Positions 6,295 to 19,136 of a stretch of 20,000 nucleotides of DNA are shown here, piece by piece. The stretch is from an uncultured virus (IMG/VR IMGVR_UViG_3300025018_002258) (taxonomy: Duplodnaviria; Heunggongvirae; Uroviricota; Caudoviricetes), in the IMG/VR virus record IMGVR_UViG_3300025018_002258, one strand, 5' to 3'. The position numbers were made by a program, and so were the translations under genes. Each line of letters starts with the position of its first letter. The first letter of the stretch is position 1. The notes beneath the pieces were generated by a model, which saw nothing but the letters and a program-made list of their open reading frames with translations, did no database searches and was not told where the DNA came from.

Positions 6295-7026
6295 ATGAAT
6301 GGCAAGGATGAATTCCTGCTAGATGGTTGCGACGAACAAAAGAAGAATAGCGTCCACGCAGTCATTTCAGCATATCGATCACTTTTGACTCCTATTTCGT
6401 ATGTCAGCATGCCGATAACGACTGGTAAGCTATATTACGAGGTCCTTGACAAAATGGGTTCTGTTTTGACTAAAGATCAGGTCTATGATCAGATCATTCG
6501 ACCGAACGGAGAGCGCGGATTGGACTTCGCGCAGTCCATTGAGGGGCTGCCGACGTTCCCTGTCGTGGCTCCAGCGATTTTTGAAGCCAAACAGATGCGA
6601 TGGACCGAAAGAGAATACATGTATCTCTGGTATCGCATTCTGGAAGAAAAAGCTCGCGAAATCTGGATGAGTCCGGGCTGGCAGTACAGCAACGGCTGCT
6701 CGGAAGAATTCACAAGAGCAATGAAGATTCAGTGGGATTTTGTGAGGTTGGATCCCACGACAGAAGATGAGCCATTGCCTATCCGGGCCTATGATGCTCT
6801 AGGCAATGAGCTGAACATCTACGATGGCACAAAGTTGGTGTTTGAAGCGATAGTAGATCTGAAAGATCGTGGGCACGATTGTCCAAAACTAATAGAGTGC
6901 TTACATGAATTGGTCAACTATGCTGGGGTTTATTATACCTACGGCAAAGACCAGGGGTGGGTCTGTCCGCATGAGGTTGACTACGAACAAATGGCCGCTT
7001 GGTCGGAACAAATTCGGTCTCTTTAG
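6295..7026 (+). CDS. DUF4406-like (nucleoside deoxyribosyltransferase-fold) protein
   Basis: YVSMPITTG...MSPGWQYSNGCSEE pattern; GAGG upstream; ends in TAG. Confidence 0.6.
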   Translation: MNGKDEFLLDGCDEQKKNSVHAVISAYRSLLTPISYVSMPITTGKLYYEVLDKMGSVLTKDQVYDQIIRPNGERGLDFAQSIEGLPTFPVVAPAIFEAKQMRWTEREYMYLWYRILEEKAREIWMSPGWQYSNGCSEEFTRAMKIQWDFVRLDPTTEDEPLPIRAYDALGNELNIYDGTKLVFEAIVDLKDRGHDCPKLIECLHELVNYAGVYYTYGKDQGWVCPHEVDYEQMAAWSEQIRSL

Positions 7027-7140
7027 GTCGGATAAGGGATTGAGATCCACGTTGTCACAATCAAACTTAACTGAAATCGGTAGACTATATGATGTCAGTG
7101 CAAATACCATAAAAAATGGGCAAAATATTACGGACGATAA

Positions 7141-8142
7141 ATGGATTACATAGGCTCGAAAATCAAGCTGAATGAATGGATTTTTGGAACCATCGAAAGC
7201 ATCGTTGATGAAAATGATGATCCGTTTCTGGATGCCTGTTGTGGCTCTGGCGCGGTAAGTCGCTATGCAGCAAATGAATGTTATGAGGTCATCGCCAATG
7301 ACATCATGAAGTTTGCCAGCGTCATTGCCAATGGAAGCATCGGAGTTTCAGACCCGATGCTTGTTGAAGCACGAGACCATATTCGGGCCATCGACGCCCT
7401 TGACCCCATTGAAGGGTTCTTTTTTCACAACTTCTGCGACGAATCAGACTCTCCCAGGCTCTATTTCACAGCAGCAAATGCTGGAAAGATAGACGCAGCC
7501 AGAGCTTATCTCGAATATATCCCTCCAGGAAAGCTGAAAGACTATTTGCTTTACTGCGGGATAGAAGCCCTGAGCCGCGTTTCCAACACGACAGGTGTAC
7601 AATCTGCTTTCCTGAAGAAGTTTAAAACCCGCGCTCTAAATGACTTCAGATTTAGGCTTGAAGATGTGATTCGGGGACATATATCAGGGGCTTTCAATGA
7701 AGATGTCTTGACACTTCTCACGGACCACGATCTCAAATATGACATTCTCTATCTAGATCCCCCATACAATCATCGTCAATATGGACCAAACTATCATCTT
7801 TATGAGACTTTTGTCAGGAATGACGATCCGGCAGTGAACGGATCAACAGGGCTAAGAAGTTGGCAGGAAGAATCAAAAAGTGATTTCTGTTCCAAGAAGG
7901 CTTGTTTGGAGTTTCTGAAGCAAGTGATTGGGGCCTCGACCGCCAAATGGAACTTTATTTCTTACAACTCAGACGGCATTATGACGAAAGAAGACGTGAT
8001 GGGAACCTTTGAGGGTTGTCAATGTTTCGAACAGCTCTATCGGCGCTATCGATCTGATGTTAGTGAGACAAGACAGTATAACGAAAGCGACTTGGTTGAA
8101 TACCTCTTCGCGATTCCAGGAAAAATTCCTGGAATCGCTTGA
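7141..8142 (+). CDS. D12-class DNA adenine methyltransferase (orphan)
   Basis: MDYIGSK, FLDACCGSGAVS, ANDI, YLDPPYN motifs. Confidence 0.92.
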   Translation: MDYIGSKIKLNEWIFGTIESIVDENDDPFLDACCGSGAVSRYAANECYEVIANDIMKFASVIANGSIGVSDPMLVEARDHIRAIDALDPIEGFFFHNFCDESDSPRLYFTAANAGKIDAARAYLEYIPPGKLKDYLLYCGIEALSRVSNTTGVQSAFLKKFKTRALNDFRFRLEDVIRGHISGAFNEDVLTLLTDHDLKYDILYLDPPYNHRQYGPNYHLYETFVRNDDPAVNGSTGLRSWQEESKSDFCSKKACLEFLKQVIGASTAKWNFISYNSDGIMTKEDVMGTFEGCQCFEQLYRRYRSDVSETRQYNESDLVEYLFAIPGKIPGIA

Positions 8143-8167
8143 CAGTTGGGGCGATTCGCGATATAAT
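8139..8167 (+). promoter_or_regulatory. Consensus sigma70 promoter of the Pth2-like operon, immediately preceded by a 13-bp inverted repeat (8110-8138)
   Basis: TTGACA 8139-8144, 17 nt, TATAAT 8162-8167. Confidence 0.85.
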
Positions 8168-8190
8168 TGGGGCTATAACGGAGGAAGAAC

Positions 8191-8541
8191 ATGTTGGACA
8201 GATTGTAGGACTCGAAACACTTCTTTGTTGTTGTTCGCACAGACATTCCCATAGAACAGCAACTCGTTCAAGCCATTCATGCCGCCCATGAATCCGGCAT
8301 TCACCTCTCCCCGTCGAGCGACAAGACGAATTCCGTCGTTGTCTGCGCCGTCAAATCGGAACAACAGCTTCTCAACGCTCAGGACAGAGTGGAAGCGAAT
8401 GGTATCCGAACCATTTTGTTCCGAGAACCAGATATCGGCAACGAGGCAACCGCCTTTGCAACCGAACCTATTCCAAGCGATCAACGGCACATGTTAAAAA
8501 ATCTCCAGCTTTGGAAGATGAAGGAGTTGTTGCCATGTTGA
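8191..8541 (+). CDS. Pth2-superfamily peptidyl-tRNA hydrolase-like protein with an in-frame TAG at codon 6 (readthrough required; 116 aa)
   Basis: GGAGGA 8180-8185, ATG 8191, TAG 8206-8208, then open: DSKHFFVVVRTDIPIEQQLVQAIHAAHESG...VVVCAVKSEQQLL...LFREPDIGNEATAFATEP...LQLW. Matches the Pth2 pattern (VVRxD...QxxHA...V...T(A/C)xx.P...L.L). No ATG/GTG/TTG between the TAG and the first motif. Confidence 0.8.
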
Positions 8542-8618
8542 ACGTTTTTCTTTAGGGTGGTCGTGCTCCTCCCCATTTGGCATTCTCGGATCCCCATTTG
8601 GGGCTGACATTTTGCTAA
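8535..8618 (+). CDS. Putative leader/arrest peptide MLNVFL*GGRAPPHLAFSDPHLGLTFC, with amber at codon 7 followed by a RAPP motif
   Basis: AAGGAG 8521-8526; ATG 8535 overlaps the Pth2-like gene end; TAG 8553-8555; CGT GCT CCT CCC (RAPP) 8562-8573; TAA 8616-8618. Confidence 0.6.
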
Positions 8619-8635
8619 ACAAGTAGGAGAAAAAG

Positions 8636-8983
8636 ATGGAAACCGTTAGAGAAATTCTGGACATTCTGACCGAGTGCATCAAGGAAGCTTCTGAACATCA
8701 GAAGAAAGCCAAGTGGTTGCGCCGAACCGTACATTTGCATCCAAAGCATGATGAGTGGATGGAAGAGTTGGCTGAAGTGCCGTATCGTTACGATGTCGGC
8801 ACTCGCGCCAAGTACATCTCGGCTTTGCTGGCTTTTCACCATGAAATCCGTGGTCAGAGATTTGATGGCCACGATTCTTGGAGACATGATGCCTTCCCGC
8901 ATGTCTTCAAGATGGTCTTGGATCAGTTGAGAGAAGAATTTTCCGAAACTCTCGCTCTTGTCTATGCTGATCTAGCAGCCTAA
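8636..8983 (+). CDS. Hypothetical helical protein downstream of the RAPP leader
   Basis: AGGAG RBS 8625-8629; 115-aa ORF. Confidence 0.8.
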   Translation: METVREILDILTECIKEASEHQKKAKWLRRTVHLHPKHDEWMEELAEVPYRYDVGTRAKYISALLAFHHEIRGQRFDGHDSWRHDAFPHVFKMVLDQLREEFSETLALVYADLAA

Positions 8984-8990
8984 ATCAGCC

Positions 8991-9016
8991 TGGGGAGTGG
9001 GGCAACTCACTCCCCA
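8991..9016 (+). terminator. GC-rich hairpin with GCAA tetraloop closing the Pth2-like operon (terminator or RNA-stabilising element; no U-tract)
   Basis: TGGGGAGTGGG-GCAA-CTCACTCCCCA. Confidence 0.5.
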
Positions 9017-9028
9017 ATGGAGATCACA

Positions 9029-9781
9029 ATGGAATACCAAGAAATGAAGGAAAGATTGACAAAAGCCCTAGAGGGTATGGATGTAACTGATCTGGAGAAA
9101 TTCAAAAGAGAAATATGTATAGAGCTTACAAATAGAAGAAGAATCTGGACTGATATTTTGAAAGAAAAATATGAAACTGAGGGATACTACGATTTTCGTA
9201 GTTCGATAGATTGGAAAGACGCAGATCAGAGAAACAAACTCTATGAAAAAGAGAAGGCAGCCAAGAAAGCAGCAGAAACAGCAGTAAGAGAAATCATTAG
9301 AGATTTCACCGATGTGGCATGTCAGGGAGTTTTAACGGGTGGTTCTGCTCGTTGGTGGTGGAGCAAACTGGACGATCCTGAACGACAAAATAAACCAACA
9401 GAGATCAGCGATGAAGCTAAATCGCTTTCTGGTATAATGCTAAATCATTCTTTCTGGTGGCCAAACAAAGGAAGATATTTGGATTATATCGACGTAAGAG
9501 AACATGTTGCCGCTGTCCTCCATGCAGTTAGCAATGCTGAGGATATTGTCTTAAGGGATGACAGAACGATTGAAGAAGAAATATCAATGGGTGTTTCGTC
9601 CGCTGCTGTTTATGATGGTTTCAGACGTTTCTATATGTATCGTGAGAACTTAGAGAAGGAACTATTGGACGATCATCACTGTGGTGATTGTATCAAAGTG
9701 GCTTGTAGTTGTTCTCGTTGCATTATCGACGATGCTCGGGGTTCCGCCGAGGAATTCATGAGAGAGGCAGGCTGGCTCTGA
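9029..9781 (+). CDS. Hypothetical protein with C-terminal His/Cys cluster
   Basis: GGAG before ATG 9029 (alternative start 9017); HHCGDCIKVACSCSRC. Confidence 0.75.
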   Translation: MEYQEMKERLTKALEGMDVTDLEKFKREICIELTNRRRIWTDILKEKYETEGYYDFRSSIDWKDADQRNKLYEKEKAAKKAAETAVREIIRDFTDVACQGVLTGGSARWWWSKLDDPERQNKPTEISDEAKSLSGIMLNHSFWWPNKGRYLDYIDVREHVAAVLHAVSNAEDIVLRDDRTIEEEISMGVSSAAVYDGFRRFYMYRENLEKELLDDHHCGDCIKVACSCSRCIIDDARGSAEEFMREAGWL

Positions 9782-9788
9782 AAGAATC

Positions 9789-9821
9789 ATGCTCCTTGGC
9801 TGTTCCTTAGCCAAGGAGCAT
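9789..9821 (+). promoter_or_regulatory. RBS-sequestering hairpin
   Basis: Perfect 13-bp stem ATGCTCCTTGGCT/AGCCAAGGAGCAT that contains the AAGGAG for ATG 9826. Confidence 0.65.
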
Positions 9822-9825
9822 CGAA

Positions 9826-10215
9826 ATGCGAGACTACTATAAAACGCAGCCGCCGCCTGGACTGACAGAGGTTCGACGCGAAATCTGGAGCCTTCAACTT
9901 GCCATTGATCGCCTCGGAGATGAGATTAAAGAAAAACAGCAGCAGGTTCAAGAACTGGAACGAAAGAAAGAAGCTGTTTTTGCCGACTGCAAGCATGATT
10001 GGGAAGAGAAATATACTCCTGTCCATTACGAGGGGTACAGAGTCCCCAGCGACCGCGAAATGGGGCTTGAACTTGGTGTTGACTCTAGGCCAGCAACTTA
10101 TGTTTCGGCCACGACTGAGAAGAAATGGACTCGAACCTGCAAAAAGTGTGGCAAGCAAGAAGTGACTTCCCGGACCCGAGAGGTCAAGCAGGAATTGCCA
10201 AGCTGGAATTCGTGA
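9826..10215 (+). CDS. Hypothetical coiled-coil + zinc-ribbon protein
   Basis: AAGGAG RBS; CKHDW...RTCKKCG. Confidence 0.8.
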   Translation: MRDYYKTQPPPGLTEVRREIWSLQLAIDRLGDEIKEKQQQVQELERKKEAVFADCKHDWEEKYTPVHYEGYRVPSDREMGLELGVDSRPATYVSATTEKKWTRTCKKCGKQEVTSRTREVKQELPSWNS

Positions 10216-10227
10216 GCGAATCGCCCC

Positions 10228-10256
10228 TTGACACCACCGGGCGCTCGTGCTATAAT
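10228..10256 (+). promoter_or_regulatory. Consensus sigma70 promoter with extended -10
   Basis: TTGACA 10228-10233, 17 nt, TGc-TATAAT (10251-10256). Confidence 0.85.
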
Positions 10257-10276
10257 AAGCGGTGGAGATTGGCGAG

Positions 10277-11134
10277 ATGGCCCACGAGAAAGAACCATTC
10301 ATTTCTGCGTCCCGTAGCATCGCCTTGATGTCGGGACGCAGAAGCATGATGGACAACATTCGGCTGGCAAACGTCGGAGGTTGTTCTTTTGGAACTGATG
10401 CTCTGGTCTATGAAGACCAGATTGTCGAAATCGTTGCCTCTCCGGTCAACTCTGAACTCCTGATTACTCGCAAGGCCAACGATAATGCCGTCGTGATCAT
10501 TAAGCCTGATGGCGAACTTTTGCGGTATCACGGTGAAATCGCCCACATGTATCGCCATCTGGCAAAGGTCCACAAGGTTGCCTTCCTTCGCCGACAGGGC
10601 GATCTAGCAACTTTCCTTGGCGAACGCCGAAAATCTATCAAATCTCTCGGGCTTGGGTTCGAAGAAGATGGCGTACCGCGTCCTGAGCAAATCAAACAAG
10701 ATGAAGTTCCCGAAGGCGTCACAGAGAGAACTCTGATTTTGGCCGAGTTTTCCTATGAAGAAATCGCTCCCCGTCTTGGAGATGACAAAAAGGGCGAAAT
10801 CAAATTCAAGGACGAAAAGGTGGCATACAAGCTGAACAGTCCTCGACTGATCTGCTTTAAGAACTCTCCCGTTTGTGTAGGGTGTGGTCGCGAAGGTGTG
10901 CTGTTTCGTCTGGAGTGGCCTCCGCATCACGGATCGCCACATCTCAATTTGTACTCTGAAGATGGGGAGATTATGACACATGATCATATCATCCCTCAGT
11001 CCAAGTACAAAGCAATCAAAGGATCCCTCCAGGGCCTTCATGGTCAGAGGAACTTGCAAACTATGTGTTATCTTTGCAATACCAAAAAGGCAGACACGTT
11101 GCCTGAAGGAATCGAAGAAAATAAGCACGCATGA
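10277..11134 (+). CDS. HNH endonuclease-domain protein with uncharacterised N-terminal region
   Basis: CVGCG...MTHDHIIPQSK...NLQTMCYLCNTKK. Confidence 0.8.
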   Translation: MAHEKEPFISASRSIALMSGRRSMMDNIRLANVGGCSFGTDALVYEDQIVEIVASPVNSELLITRKANDNAVVIIKPDGELLRYHGEIAHMYRHLAKVHKVAFLRRQGDLATFLGERRKSIKSLGLGFEEDGVPRPEQIKQDEVPEGVTERTLILAEFSYEEIAPRLGDDKKGEIKFKDEKVAYKLNSPRLICFKNSPVCVGCGREGVLFRLEWPPHHGSPHLNLYSEDGEIMTHDHIIPQSKYKAIKGSLQGLHGQRNLQTMCYLCNTKKADTLPEGIEENKHA

Positions 11135-12625: not shown

Positions 12626-12696
12626 CGCGGAGTGGAGCAGTCTGGTAGCTCGATGTCATATCCGGTAGGTCTCAAGTTCAAATCTTGCCTCCGCTA
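12626..12696 (+). pseudogene. Degenerate initiator-like tRNA-Met(CAT)
   Basis: CGCGGAGTGGAGCAGTCTGGTAGCTCG...TCATA...AGGTC...GTTCAAATC...CTCCGCTA resembles tRNA-fMet; the 5' strand of the anticodon stem is about 3 nt short and unpaired. Confidence 0.75.
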
Positions 12697-14121: not shown

Positions 14122-14236
14122 AGGAAACATCCAGTGGCTTCATAAAGATGTCAATTGGATGAAAGGCAGATTCAATACGAGTGAATTGATTAGGATATGT
14201 TGCATGATAGCAGACACAGTTGGGAGCGCTGAATGA
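14114..14236 (+). pseudogene. C-terminal remnant of an HNH-like homing endonuclease
   Basis: VIKGNIQWLHKDVNWMKGRFNTSELIRIC resembles the GY.KGN(I/V)QW.HKD.N.MK tail. Confidence 0.6.
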
Positions 14237-15075
14237 TATTGGAAGCTTGTGTGGCCGATTGTTACGGCGTGGGCTTCGAGTACGCTCCGAAAGAGTTTGT
14301 TGAGAAATACAATACTCTCAAGGGATACGTCGCTCATCCTGGCTATCATAGTATCATACCTGGACATTACAGTGATGATACTCAAATGTCGCTCGCCATT
14401 GTTGAACTGATCGTTGATGAAGTCGAATGGACCACCGAGAACATTGCAGCCAAATTCGTCGAAGTTTACAAACGAGATCCCATTGATGGATATGCTCAGG
14501 GCTTCAAGGGTTTGCTCGACGAAGTTTCCAGCGGGACAGAACTATTGGAGAGGCTAGATCCCGATAGTGACAAAAGCGGCGCTGCAATGCGAGCATGGCC
14601 AATCGGTGTTTTCAAAGAAATTCCAGAGGTTCTCCAGCGAGCAGCCGTCCAGGCGCGAATAACACACAATTCCATAAACGGTGTTCGTGCGGCCTTGGTT
14701 TCTGCCCTAACTACGCACTATTTCATCTATAAAATAGGCCCAAAGGCCGAATTATTCTCTTGGCTCCAGAAATACATCAAGGCAGATTGGCTCAAGCCCT
14801 ATCGGAAGAAAGTGAATTCTAAGGGATGGATGAGCATGAGTGCGGCCTTGACAGCTTTGACGGAGTGTGATACAATGACTTCGTTGCTGGAGAGGTGCAT
14901 CGCTTTCACCGGAGACGTAGACACCGTGGCGACGATAGCTCTAGCGGCAGGATCGTGCTCAGAAGAGATTGAGCAGGACTTGCCAGCATTCTTCAAGCAA
15001 GACTTGCAAAATGGGCCATATGGAAAAGATTACATAATGGCTCTGGACAAACGACTGAGGGCCTTTCAGGGCTGA
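14233..15075 (+). CDS. ADP-ribosylglycohydrolase (DraG/ARH family)
   Basis: DCYGVGFE, YSDDTQMS, SGAAMRAWPIG, THNS, GDVDTVATIA motifs. Confidence 0.92.
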   Translation: MILEACVADCYGVGFEYAPKEFVEKYNTLKGYVAHPGYHSIIPGHYSDDTQMSLAIVELIVDEVEWTTENIAAKFVEVYKRDPIDGYAQGFKGLLDEVSSGTELLERLDPDSDKSGAAMRAWPIGVFKEIPEVLQRAAVQARITHNSINGVRAALVSALTTHYFIYKIGPKAELFSWLQKYIKADWLKPYRKKVNSKGWMSMSAALTALTECDTMTSLLERCIAFTGDVDTVATIALAAGSCSEEIEQDLPAFFKQDLQNGPYGKDYIMALDKRLRAFQG

Positions 15076-17488: not shown

Positions 17489-17560
17489 AGGCAGTGTCAG
17501 GGAAGGAAAAGGGCCGAAGATAGTTCGGTTCCTCAAATTCCTGATATAATTGACAAACAT

Positions 17561-17643
17561 GGCGTCGTATGCAAACGGTTAAAGCGACTTGATTTTCATT
17601 CAAGTGCCATTGGGCTTTGCGGGTTCGAATCCTGTCGGCGCTA
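17561..17643 (+). tRNA. tRNA-Glu(TTC) with an unusually long variable region
   Basis: Acceptor GGCGTCG/CGGCGCT; anticodon arm CTTGA-TTTTCAT-TCAAG; T arm GCGGG-TTCGAAT-CCTGT; no encoded CCA. Confidence 0.8.
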
Positions 17644-17646
17644 TTA

Positions 17647-17682
17647 AAACCTCGCTCATCTAAGATGAGCGCGGTTTCTTTT
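17647..17682 (+). terminator. Rho-independent terminator
   Basis: AAACC.CGCTCATC-TAA-GATGAGCG.GGTTT followed by CTTTT. Confidence 0.7.
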
Positions 17683-17768
17683 CATAAGTTTGGCAGAAAT
17701 CAGTCAAGAACTCCAGTTTTGGCATACAATTAGCACAGAGAAGGTGAAGAAGTCTTCGGTGATCCTAT

Positions 17769-17850
17769 GCCGGGAATGCTCGATTGGCAGGAGCGCAAGT
17801 ATCATAAACTTGTTCATTAAGACGTGTGGGTTCGAGTCCCGCTCCCGGTA
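17769..17850 (+). tRNA. tRNA with CAT anticodon (Met or Ile2), atypical
   Basis: Acceptor GCCGGGA/TCCCGGT; D stem GCTC/GAGC; anticodon arm CAAGT-ATCATAA-ACTTG; T arm GTGGG-TTCGAGT-CCCGC; 13-nt variable region. Confidence 0.75.
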
Positions 17851-17860
17851 CTTTGGAGAC

Positions 17861-18037
17861 GTGAGAAGTAAGGGTCCGGCTGAGGGCAACAAGATCGTCG
17901 CCCAAAGCCTTGCTCAGAATCCGAACATCCTCAAGTGGCGTGAGTTGCAGAACCAACACGACGCTATCGCGAGATGGGACGGCAAGATGCCTCAGGTCAG
18001 CGGGGGGCCGATGCTGAACCTGACTCCGAACAAGTAA
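17861..18037 (+). pseudogene. C-terminal remnant of an SPFH/prohibitin-family gene
   Basis: AEGNKIVAQSL...ILKWRELQ...AIARWDGKMPQV resembles the phage band-7 protein tail; no N-terminal domain. Confidence 0.65.
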
Positions 18038-18137
18038 ACGCGACGGCAAGCCCCGGCTCTTCATTGGGCCTGGGCTTCGCCATATCCGGCCGCTCGACAG
18101 AGAATTGAAGATGGGGATGGGCAAGATCCGGGGTCAG

Positions 18138-18146
18138 TGGTATAAT
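18138..18146 (+). promoter_or_regulatory. Extended -10 promoter
   Basis: TGgTATAAT just upstream of GGAG and ATG 18164; poor -35. Confidence 0.55.
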
Positions 18147-18163
18147 GAGCGTGGAGATAGAGA

Positions 18164-18346
18164 ATGGCAGACAACAGCACAGGCGTAAGCATTACAATCT
18201 CGGCGAATTTGACGCTGGAGGAATTGGCAGACGTTCTGGTGGAGGAATTGGACACCGATTCCTTGCTGGAACTCTTTGAGGCCATCGAACAGCGGTCGGA
18301 GGAAGGTTTTGTCGAGAATCTTCGGCAGCGGCTGAAGGAAGAATAG
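18164..18346 (+). CDS. Small acidic hypothetical protein
   Basis: GGAG RBS and its own promoter. Confidence 0.7.
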   Translation: MADNSTGVSITISANLTLEELADVLVEELDTDSLLELFEAIEQRSEEGFVENLRQRLKEE

Positions 18347-18353
18347 AGCTATC

Positions 18354-18605
18354 ATGCCATCGCTATCCTTCATCGACCGTCAGGGTGAAATCAAAAAAAT
18401 CCAGGGGGATAGTTTTGTTCAAGACTATTTCGAGCTAACCGAAATAGCCAGATCGAAGGCAGAGTGGGCGGCGCGGGAGTTTTTGGACGATGATTCAGAG
18501 CAGACGATAGCAGAACTGACTAAGATTTACACCGAGAGCATGCATCGGGAACTAGGGATTAATGTCACAGACAGATTTCCTTATGATCTCGTAGAAAGGC
18601 ACTGA
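18354..18605 (+). CDS. Hypothetical protein
   Basis: 83-aa ORF in tandem. Confidence 0.65.
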   Translation: MPSLSFIDRQGEIKKIQGDSFVQDYFELTEIARSKAEWAAREFLDDDSEQTIAELTKIYTESMHRELGINVTDRFPYDLVERH

Positions 18606-18606
18606 A

Positions 18607-18924
18607 ATGCAACAATTGTGCGTCGGGCTATTCGGAACATGTGGAGGATCGACGTGGCGCAACAAGTTCATTGAGCGCTACAATAATGAAGACATCATGT
18701 TCTTCAATCCTCAAGTCGAAGAGTGGGATCCTTCAATGGCAGCCATCGAAGACTTGAAAGAGGCTGCTGCCGTTTACAATCAGATCGTCTGCCATTTTGA
18801 TTCTGTCAGTCGCAAAGTAATCCCAGAACTCTCTGATGTTGCCAAGGAATTGATCTCCGGTCAGAAGAATCCGGGAATTAGTCTCATATCTGAGACGGTA
18901 CTTGACAGTCCGGCTCCTTCGTGA
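18607..18924 (+). CDS. Nucleoside 2-deoxyribosyltransferase-like N-terminus, probably truncated or chimeric
   Basis: VGLFGTCGGSTWR...FFNPQVEEW motif; resemblance is lost after about residue 48. Confidence 0.55.
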   Translation: MQQLCVGLFGTCGGSTWRNKFIERYNNEDIMFFNPQVEEWDPSMAAIEDLKEAAAVYNQIVCHFDSVSRKVIPELSDVAKELISGQKNPGISLISETVLDSPAPS

Positions 18925-18930
18925 TATAAT
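18902..18930 (+). promoter_or_regulatory. Consensus sigma70 promoter for the tRNA-Ser pair
   Basis: TTGACA 18902-18907, 17 nt, TGa-TATAAT (18925-18930). Confidence 0.85.
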
Positions 18931-18937
18931 TGACGAT

Positions 18938-19025
18938 GGAGAAGTGACCGAGATGGCTTATGGAGCGCGACTGGAACTCGCGTGCAGTCGAAAGGCTGCC
19001 AGGGGTTCGAATCCCCTCTTCTCCG
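18938..19025 (+). tRNA. tRNA-Ser(GGA)
   Basis: Acceptor GGAGAAG/CTTCTCC, G73; anticodon arm CGCGA-CTGGAAC-TCGCG; long variable arm GCAGTC-GAAA-GGCTGC; T arm AGGGG-TTCGAAT-CCCCT. Confidence 0.95.
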
Positions 19026-19027
19026 TT

Positions 19028-19112
19028 GGAAGATTGCCAGAGTGGTAATGGGCTCGCCTCGAAAGTGATGGCCTCGGTGAAACGAGCAGAGGTTCGATTC
19101 CTCTATCTTCCG
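19028..19112 (+). tRNA. tRNA-Ser(CGA)
   Basis: Acceptor GGAAGAT/ATCTTCC, G73; loop CTCGAAA; variable arm CTCG/CGAG; T arm AGAGG-TTCGATT-CCTCT. Confidence 0.9.
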
Positions 19113-19136
19113 TCTAAATCCAGTGGAGGCATAGCT

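Follow-up and report, generated by a model that had tools for sequence, protein, structure and literature searches.

Arrest peptides with R-A-P-P or R-G-P-P motifs (ApdA and ApdP, and SecM with R-A-G-P) are encoded by small co-oriented open reading frames (ORFs) upstream of the genes they control, carry an R-x-P-P core near their end, and are found where the ribosome-binding site (RBS) of the downstream gene can pair with mRNA under or just after the stall site. In recoded phages in which TAG specifies glutamine (genetic code 15; crAss-like, Lak, and other phages), in-frame TAG codons are read by a phage suppressor tRNA with anticodon CUA, tRNA(CUA). In the autoregulation of prfB, encoding release factor 2, and in trp-type attenuation, an early codon in a short frame senses how active a translation factor or tRNA is and thereby determines expression downstream. 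The bar minigenes of phage lambda (ATG-ATA-stop) are ORFs of two to three codons behind a strong Shine-Dalgarno (SD) sequence that shed peptidyl-tRNA for peptidyl-tRNA hydrolase (Pth), and they are toxic when host Pth is limiting. Finally, according to the passages devoted to it in a review (PMC6412442), Liu, Qi, Yanofsky and Arkin (2011) made expression depend on an amber-suppressor tRNA by means of a UAG in a leader peptide. Here, we describe an operon with likenesses to all of these systems in a 20,000-nucleotide (nt) stretch of DNA from an uncultured virus of the Caudoviricetes (IMG/VR record IMGVR_UViG_3300025018_002258; the whole stretch is hereafter called the window). As judged from comparative sequence analysis, the operon likely comprises two units that are each gated by an early in-frame UAG, for which the most plausible reader is a phage tRNA(CUA) competing with host release factor 1 (RF1).

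The operon departs from each of its nearest counterparts. Compared to ApdA, ApdP, and SecM, the phage motif lies behind a stop codon, so that ribosomes would have to read through to reach it, no Sec or YidC component is encoded downstream, and arrest is predicted. Since the predicted nascent chain has only 7 to 15 residues and no signal peptide, release by a pulling force is not expected to be the input of the phage leader. Compared to code-15 phages, the standard code is used otherwise, and the TAG codons are confined to one small operon instead of being spread over late genes, occurring once per unit at codons 6 and 7 in the window (codons 2 to 13 in relatives). In contrast to prfB, no frameshift is involved, since the frame continues in phase, and the gene product does not itself read the stop; unlike in trp-type attenuation, no terminator or antiterminator was found at the phage operon. 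The engineered amber switches, as summarized in the relevant passages of the review (PMC6412442), are synthetic and act on transcription via the tna leader, whereas the phage operon is natural and probably translational. Like the bar minigenes, the phage mini-ORFs follow a strong SD, and they head a Pth-like gene; however, their frame runs on into a conserved protein and their stop is specifically TAG, and peptidyl-tRNA drop-off would apply here by analogy only. Large standard-code phages often carry amber-suppressor tRNAs of unexplained purpose, for which this operon offers concrete and testable targets. In its passages on the suppressor tRNA, the paper on Xanthomonas phage XacN1 reports a search for target genes that found none (PMC5852040), and the corresponding passages on Ralstonia phage RsoM2USA merely note the tRNA (PMC8504454). 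Full-text literature searches, which covered neither paper's supplementary tables, found neither an amber-gated Pth2-like gene nor a stop-shielded arrest motif described for phages; a preliminary description of the locus had likewise known of no such report.

That preliminary description had listed a consensus promoter, two ORFs behind SD sequences with an early TAG, a Pth2-like domain past the first stop, R-A-P-P behind the second, a 115-amino-acid (aa) gene after this leader, and a closing hairpin, all of which are present in the window (Table 1). The first ORF starts with ATG TTG GAC AGA TTG TAG G (8191-8209) and the second with ATG TTG AAC GTT TTT CTT TAG G (8535-8556), in agreement with the ATG TTG (G/A)AC and Leu-TAG-G that had been stated for both. 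ATG, GTG, and TTG are all absent from the Pth2-like frame before codon 60. The ATG of the second ORF overlaps the 3′ end of this frame, and the codons behind its TAG (GGT GGT CGT GCT CCT CCC) encode G-G-R-A-P-P. The hairpin should not be taken as a terminator because it lacks a T-run and is absent from the list of terminator-like elements. A scan for the gate design (SD, ATG, a stop within 12 codons, and then at least 60 open codons without an early start) returned a single site window-wide.

Table 1. Features of the amber-gated operon in the 20-kb window
Feature	Position	Strand	Details
Sigma-70-type promoter	8139..8167	+	TTGACA-17 nt-TATAAT, 12/12 consensus matches
Gate 1	8180..8208	+	SD GGAGG 8180-8184, ATG 8191, four codons L-D-R-L, TAG 8206-8208
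Pth2-fold domain (predicted)	8209..8541	+	110 codons and TGA 8539-8541, in frame past gate 1
Gate 2	8520..8555	+	SD GGAG, ATG 8535, five codons, TAG 8553-8555
Leader, read-through part	8556..8618	+	G-G, R-A-P-P 8562-8573, 14 more codons, TAA 8616-8618
Proposed anti-SD/SD pairing	8568..8638	+	From first Pro codon to next gene's SD (AGGAG 8625-8629) and ATG
115-aa gene	8636..8983	+	All-helical (predicted) family without a name, conserved neighbour of the Pth2-like gene
Hairpin	8989..9016	+	G+C-rich, no T-run, -22.6 kcal/mol

To collect relatives of the gated gene, the 110-residue domain was compared by tblastn with 50,697 phage records, of which 46 matched, mostly from jumbo phages and many without any annotation beneath the match. 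A profile search of IMG/VR gave 104 relatives, the best 80 of which were used. Altogether, 86 loci were examined (the IMG/VR set, the window, and the first four GenBank loci, duplicates included), corresponding to 74 distinct cores, with homologues sharing 30 to 63% identity with the window protein. A single-protein scan of prokaryote genomes found no close relative. The early in-frame stop noted in the preliminary description proved to be the rule in this family: an SD and ATG followed by 1 to 12 codons and a TAG is found in 55 of the 74 distinct loci, and an ordinary start in only 9. TAG also occupies the gate position in four loci that were classed otherwise (two lack an upstream ATG and two have an additional downstream ATG), while TGA is found there in a single locus (L013) and TAA in none; the remaining five are N-terminal fusions. 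In all 55 gated loci, the TAG lies 8 to 16 codons ahead of an invariant Arg with no ATG in between. A single codon separates ATG and TAG in 32 of them, and 46 have an SD-like motif ahead of the ATG. Directly behind the TAG stands A in 27 loci, G in 25, C in 3, and T in 0, i.e., a purine in 52/55. In E. coli, amber suppression is favoured by a 3′ purine. In addition, six distinct homologues carry a second in-frame TAG within the domain, always in variable alignment columns, which give no indication of the inserted residue.

Among eight cultured phages inspected, five share the gate design, namely Acinetobacter phage ME3 (M-T-stop), Serratia phage BF (M-T-H-stop), Ralstonia phage RsoM2USA (M-L-stop), Cronobacter phage GAP32 (M-A-Q-stop), and Salmonella phage Arash (M-L-stop). 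In mycobacteriophage IkeLoa, ATG-TAG is immediately followed by an annotated GTG start; Klebsiella phage K64-1 has a Pth2-like gene with an ordinary ATG, and in XacN1 the domain is fused behind a longer N terminus. Gene callers overlook or truncate the gated gene, which is unannotated in BF and RsoM2USA and truncated in GAP32 and Arash. On the strength of these comparisons, gate 1 is a conserved and programmed feature of this phage gene family.

The second gate was then analyzed by searching all frames of the collected loci and the window (1.8 Mb, both strands) for the pattern M-x(0-10)-stop-x(0-3)-R-[AGS]-P-P. The pattern was matched 13 times with TAG (10 distinct leader loci and one probable chance match on the opposite strand), never with TAA, and once with TGA. 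The sole TGA match came from L013, which is also the only locus with TGA at the enzyme gate; the type of stop therefore covaries between the two gates. Three further loci carry M-x-TAG-I-[F/H]-K-P-P-stop, giving a total of 13 distinct leaders, all of which have an SD. The association of an early stop with R-A-P-P, pointed out in the window by the preliminary description, is thus a recurrent design: a stop, zero to three codons, and then R-[G/A/S]-P-P (10 loci) or K-P-P (3 loci), with the frame of the motif relative to the stop preserved in 13/13. R-A-P-P is the version carried by the window; among the relatives, R-G-P-P is found in seven loci, R-S-P-P in two, H-K-P-P in one, and F-K-P-P in two. 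In 8/13, the leader ATG overlaps the stop of the Pth2-like gene or lies within 7 nt of it. The codons of the motif vary freely (CGT, CGC, AGA, and AGG for Arg; GGA, GGG, and GGT for Gly; all four codons for Pro), which argues that the leader is selected as a peptide rather than as RNA and, therefore, that translation continues in frame beyond the stop. Judging by these patterns of conservation, the sequence behind each of the two stops is under protein-level selection. According to the parts of two studies that treat such motifs, the strongest arrest in several contexts comes from RAPP and RGPP, RSPP is partly permissive, elongation factor P fails to relieve R-x-P-P arrest, and RGPP is the tetrapeptide most avoided in bacterial proteomes (PMC12992588), while a minimal RxPP or HxPP motif is able to stall ribosomes, with modulation by N-terminal residues (PMC10951233). 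The leader motifs RGPP, RAPP, RSPP, and the one HKPP match the arrest-competent set given in those parts (PMC12992588 and PMC10951233). As a separate observation, locus L053 contains a TAA-gated mini-ORF reading M-L-A-E-R-stop-R-P-P.

Given that amber codons head both units, the tRNA genes around the family were examined with ARAGORN in flanks of at most 3 kb on each side of 73 distinct loci, the window excluded. A total of 235 tRNA genes were detected, 58 of which have anticodon CUA, spread over 46 loci and all on the same strand as the Pth2-like gene. The next commonest anticodon occurs in only nine loci, and in loci with exactly one tRNA the anticodon is CUA in 15/21. Ungated and fused forms of the gene adjoin a tRNA(CUA) in 6/16 cases. 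For five records with a gated gene but no tRNA(CUA) in the flanks, the tRNA regions were fetched and checked, and a tRNA(CUA) was found elsewhere in four: about 3.3 kb away in Serratia phage BF, about 13 kb away in RsoM2USA, in a 527-kb contig, and about 7 kb upstream in the contig of L008, the closest relative of the window (63% identity). Locus L013 shows no suppressor in its 6.3 kb. The CUA tRNAs are 72 to 79 nt long in all but one case, and their identity by similarity to 348 other phage tRNAs was scattered and low (Arg 21, Lys 8, Thr 8, others; n = 65). In L039, L044, L063, L065, L068, and L074, a phage gene for transfer-messenger RNA (tmRNA) is found no more than 3 kb from both the Pth2-like gene and one to three copies of tRNA(CUA), which suggests a wider translation-rescue island. 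Four-base-anticodon tRNAs (ctag, aaac, ccgg, ttgt, gcaa, and taaa, as called by ARAGORN) adjoin the CUA tRNAs in L053 (5305-5384), L023, L024, L045, L046, and L081.

These results refine the double-gated switch proposed in the preliminary description, which was to open whenever termination at UAG fails. The conserved, programmed gates stand, and we narrow the trigger to a phage suppressor tRNA(CUA) because 46/73 loci adjoin such a tRNA and because the stop type covaries in L013. RF1 depletion alone, which had been considered alongside it, is less favoured. In an RF1 sensor devoid of a phage suppressor, near-cognate host tRNAs would read the gates when RF1 is scarce or inhibited, following a logic similar to that of prfB. 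Such a sensor would explain the near-exclusive use of TAG, as recognition by RF1 alone is unique to UAG, and it would agree with the lack of a tRNA(CUA) in 30 kb of this phage and in the tRNA regions fetched for G001. The tRNA(CUA) located beside the family in 46/73 loci and elsewhere in four of five further records is more difficult to accommodate, and TGA at both gates of L013 fits a changed private suppressor better than a change in the release factor being sensed. Consequently, we consider an RF1 sensor unlikely.

A second alternative dispenses with read-through. Start-stop mini-ORFs of two to seven codons could be followed by re-initiation at the next codon, the stop merely tuning initiation. 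Some gates have the appropriate codons, since ATT, ATC, or ATA follows the enzyme gate in 16/55 loci, ATG follows the leader stop in 3/13 and GTG in 1/13, and the annotated GTG start of IkeLoa sits directly behind its ATG-TAG. However, any stop would do for re-initiation, yet 55 gates have TAG, a single one has TGA, and none has TAA, even though genes in the window end most often with TGA (23/33). Moreover, at least 23 of the 55 gates, including that of the window with GAC, are followed by a codon not known as a start, and both the tRNA(CUA) linkage and the internal TAGs of six homologues are left unexplained. We thus find re-initiation as the sole explanation quite improbable.

The gene that follows the leader was characterized next. 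For the protein encoded from 8636, which the preliminary description had taken as the effector, homologue searches recovered a conserved partner family of the Pth2-like gene. Single-sequence searches found few members (tblastn of the collected loci gave one relative and a word-index protein search two), and searches for loci with the 115-aa protein returned the contig of L005 alone or nothing, so that the family was recovered only by a profile built from five seeds. With this profile, it was detected in 20 distinct loci, always immediately downstream of the Pth2-like gene, and it comprises 385 cluster representatives at an E value of ≤1e-3 and 151 at ≤1e-10. Behind the leader, the family is present in 12/13 loci, and the remaining locus is cut by the contig end. 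In five of the eight loci in which the third gene has no leader, its start overlaps the gated gene's stop or is at most 3 nt away from it. Translation of the third gene would therefore be tied to read-through either way, by the leader in front of it (12 loci) or by a start at the gated gene's stop (5/8). The model of the 115-aa protein is all-helical, with a predicted local distance difference test (pLDDT) score of 85.5. It gave no Pfam, NCBIfam, or PDB-sequence match, no PDB-fold match at an E value of ≤0.001, and an Atlas score of 0.79, below the meaningful level. In L018, a tRNA-Cys gene (2850-2925) is inserted between the gated R-G-P-P leader and the 115-aa gene homologue.

The distance from the end of the P-P codons to the next ATG is 45 to 63 nt in 10/12 loci, and the first Pro codon opens a 24-nt segment that can pair with the next gene around its SD and AUG. 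This duplex is stronger than at least 91% of the natural 24-nt windows of the same locus in 10/10 loci and stronger than at least 96% of composition-matched shuffles in 6/10, with strong pairing in L005, L008, L011, L015, and L014. In the window, the duplex (-8.5 kcal/mol) beats 96.6% of natural 24-nt windows. Single-sequence folds of two leaders were not significant (z scores of -0.30 and -0.47). In one subgroup of three loci, a consensus hairpin of 14 pairs was found, 3 of which show compensatory changes. In L005, L008, and L013, the Pro codons themselves form the 5′ arm of the pairing. The latter feature, along with the complementarity of CCUCC to the SD, is what might be expected if the leader acted purely as RNA, with a CUCC-rich anti-SD masking the RBS and R-A-P-P as a mere by-product. 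Against this stand R-G-P-P motifs without CCUCC in L009 (CGC GGG CCC CCG) and L011/L015 (AGA GGA CCG CCG), Arg drawn from both codon families, and a frame that is kept in 13/13, which together render an RNA-only leader very improbable. R-A-P-P as a product of chance or of the anti-SD was our first consideration, and it was rejected on the basis of the pattern search and of the codon variation.

Finally, the accuracy of the sequence and the genetic code of the phage were verified. The window is phage-like, with all genes on one strand, and the 33 ORFs taken as genes end with TGA (23), TAA (7), or TAG (3). As the preliminary description had argued, ordinary genes end with TAG (at 7026, 17456, and 18346), and reading TAG as sense did not merge or lengthen the ORFs of the window in general; the window phage uses the standard code, as do its cultured relatives according to their annotation. 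Both TAGs are kept in contigs from other sequencing runs (8206-8208 in X3, X5, and X6; 8553-8555 in X3 to X6), including one X6 variant with two synonymous changes in the five-codon leader (8199 and 8203). The possibility of sequencing errors, raised in the preliminary description, can thus be put aside, and neither stop is an error or a chance occurrence. Genome-wide reassignment of TAG (code 15), a pseudogene, or an assembly error is hardly credible, for although suppressor tRNAs are typical of recoded phages in the passages on them in PMC13037316 and TAG is the rarest stop in the window, TAG as sense brings no general ORF gain, three ordinary genes end with TAG, the gate design occurs at a single site, the relatives use the standard code, and the TAGs recur in the contigs of four other runs and in 55 diverged loci.

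The protein behind gate 1 was analyzed at the level of both sequence and predicted structure. Its match to Pfam PF01981 is marginal (E value of 7.4e-5; 23.4 bits against a cut-off of 23), and it falls far short of the NCBIfam equivalog NF003314 (16.6 against 126). A profile of the family matches solved Pth2 chains by sequence (E values of 2.4e-7 and 9.8e-5). The structure model (pLDDT of 89.8; predicted template modeling score of 0.83) was compared to the PDB with Foldseek, and the top 14 matches were all Pth2-family chains or close structural-genomics relatives, with E values of 1.9e-6 to 8.4e-4 and template modeling (TM) scores of 0.54 to 0.78. The PF01981 match and the predicted fold agree with the preliminary assignment of a Pth2-like domain past the first stop. 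Archaeal and eukaryotic Pth2 (PF01981; 2zv3, 3erj, 1xty, and 1q7s) have the same fold as the phage protein (best TM score of 0.78), and the phage protein retains two of their motifs, R-x-D and Q-x-x-H-A, in the first strand and helix. According to this model, the gated protein is a member of the Pth2 superfamily, for which we do not claim Pth2 activity.

A mechanism can be proposed from these features. Of the ribosomes starting at ATG 8191, some would stop at the UAG and release five residues, and others would decode it as an amino acid and go on to make the Pth2-fold protein. The leader would probably be fed partly by ribosomes that have passed gate 1, because its ATG overlaps the end of their frame, and it could also be initiated by fresh ribosomes. 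We infer that read-through of gate 2 would bring the ribosome to R-A-P-P within four codons, where it may stall with about 12 residues polymerized; in that position it would cover the approximately 24 nt that otherwise pair with the next RBS, and the 115-aa protein would be switched on. The logic of such a switch would be analogous to that of SecM-secA, MifM-yidC2, and the erm leaders. Output should depend on the efficiency of suppression, since read-through is needed and the third gene requires two successive gates, whereas failed attempts should release only few-residue peptides, the gates lying at codons 2 to 13. An R-x-P-P motif behind a stop would be a new type of input for arrest-peptide regulation, and the operon would represent a natural counterpart of the engineered amber switches as well as a compact part for synthetic biology. 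As for the two proteins, we infer roles that amount to a guess, i.e., that they handle peptidyl- or aminoacyl-tRNA by-products of suppression or the suppressor tRNA itself, the whole basis being the fold, the tRNA(CUA) neighbourhood, and the nearby tmRNA genes. A role in translation rescue against a host shut-off, as suggested in the preliminary description, is conjectural.

More tentatively, and with considerable doubt, we raise the possibility that the operon is a meter of the phage's own amber-suppressor tRNA, that is, a self-measuring circuit for a private codon in a standard-code phage. Its products might feed back on the suppressor tRNA itself or on the peptidyl- or aminoacyl-tRNA derived from it, and read-through might thereby be held at a level that serves the phage. 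Two successive UAG gates would give a steep, roughly squared output, with the second gate feeding the arrest peptide. If true, these would be the first defined natural targets of suppressor tRNAs in standard-code phage genomes and the first natural arrest peptide with a stop codon as its input.

Several observations weigh against gating by a phage tRNA(CUA) and a stop-shielded arrest peptide. The 20-kb window contains no tRNA(CUA) by ARAGORN or Rfam, nor do the 10 kb beyond its end, and nothing in these sequences resembles the CUA tRNAs of relatives, so that the suppressor whose search the preliminary description had proposed did not turn up in the 30 kb seen of this phage. Likewise, G001 has none in its fetched tRNA regions. 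The predicted stall would occur on a chain of about 12 residues in the window and 7 to 15 in relatives, and residues N-terminal to RAPP contribute to arrest according to the relevant part of PMC10951233. The duplex with the next RBS is weak in the window, where 34% of shuffles reach it, and in the single-sequence fold of the window (z score of -0.3) CUCC pairs with the leader's own SD instead. Re-initiation could contribute, because start codons directly follow four leader stops (ATG in L010, L036, and L013; GTG in L015) and ATT, ATC, or ATA follows 16/55 enzyme gates. As for the enzyme itself, the phage protein differs from archaeal and eukaryotic Pth2 by a two-residue deletion, by an invariant Gln17 at the position of the Lys in the archaeal G-K motif, and by Glu-Pro-Asp in place of Asp-Ala-Gly, where Glu73 aligns with the Asp of D-A-G and the acid is kept (2zv3 and 24bt in both alignments). 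According to work on the Sulfolobus enzyme, this Lys and Asp are the catalytic residues of Pth2. Classical Pth2 chemistry is not assured because of Gln17 for Lys and Glu73 for Asp.

The rest of the window was also surveyed. A megablast of positions 7000-10000 against the phage collection gave no match, and an exact-match search with the window end found 0 viral contigs and five metagenome contigs, which provided the 10 kb of additional downstream sequence (L086 and L088). The genes of the window include an exonuclease, a Dam-type methylase, an HNH nuclease, a phosphoesterase, and four tRNAs. An NAD/ADP-ribose theme is apparent, with the BRCT end of an NAD-dependent ligase fused to a macro domain (2-970, + strand) and a separate ADP-ribosylglycohydrolase (14233-15075, + strand). 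A TnpB/IS605 OrfB-type gene (PF01385 and PF07282; 3347-4492, + strand) lies amid a block of replication genes, in a stretch with a low G+C fraction (0.39, against about 0.47). Directly downstream of the operon, an unnamed gene of about 250 aa (9017-9781, + strand) has an ATG without SD at the foot of the hairpin (9017), and ATG 9030, with GGAG 7 nt upstream, is the likelier start. A second promoter with 12/12 consensus matches (TTGACA-17-TATAAT with an extended -10 TG; 10228-10256, + strand) precedes an HNH-domain gene (10262-11134). A tRNA-like element (12626-12696, + strand) scored 32.1 bits with Rfam RF00005 (cut-off of 29) and was not called by ARAGORN; its acceptor, D, and T arms are good, and its anticodon arm is 2 to 3 nt too short for a 7-nt loop. 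This element, which could be a pseudo-tRNA or a decoy, is preceded by a promoter-like TTGCAG-17-TATAAT ending about 11 nt upstream. The four tRNAs (17560-19114, + strand) are Glu-UUC (85 nt), Met-CAU (83 nt), Ser-GGA (90 nt), and Ser-CGA (88 nt). In the ARAGORN predictions, all four have 8-bp acceptor stems and 6-bp anticodon stems, and tRNA-Glu and tRNA-Met have long variable arms, which is odd for their identity.

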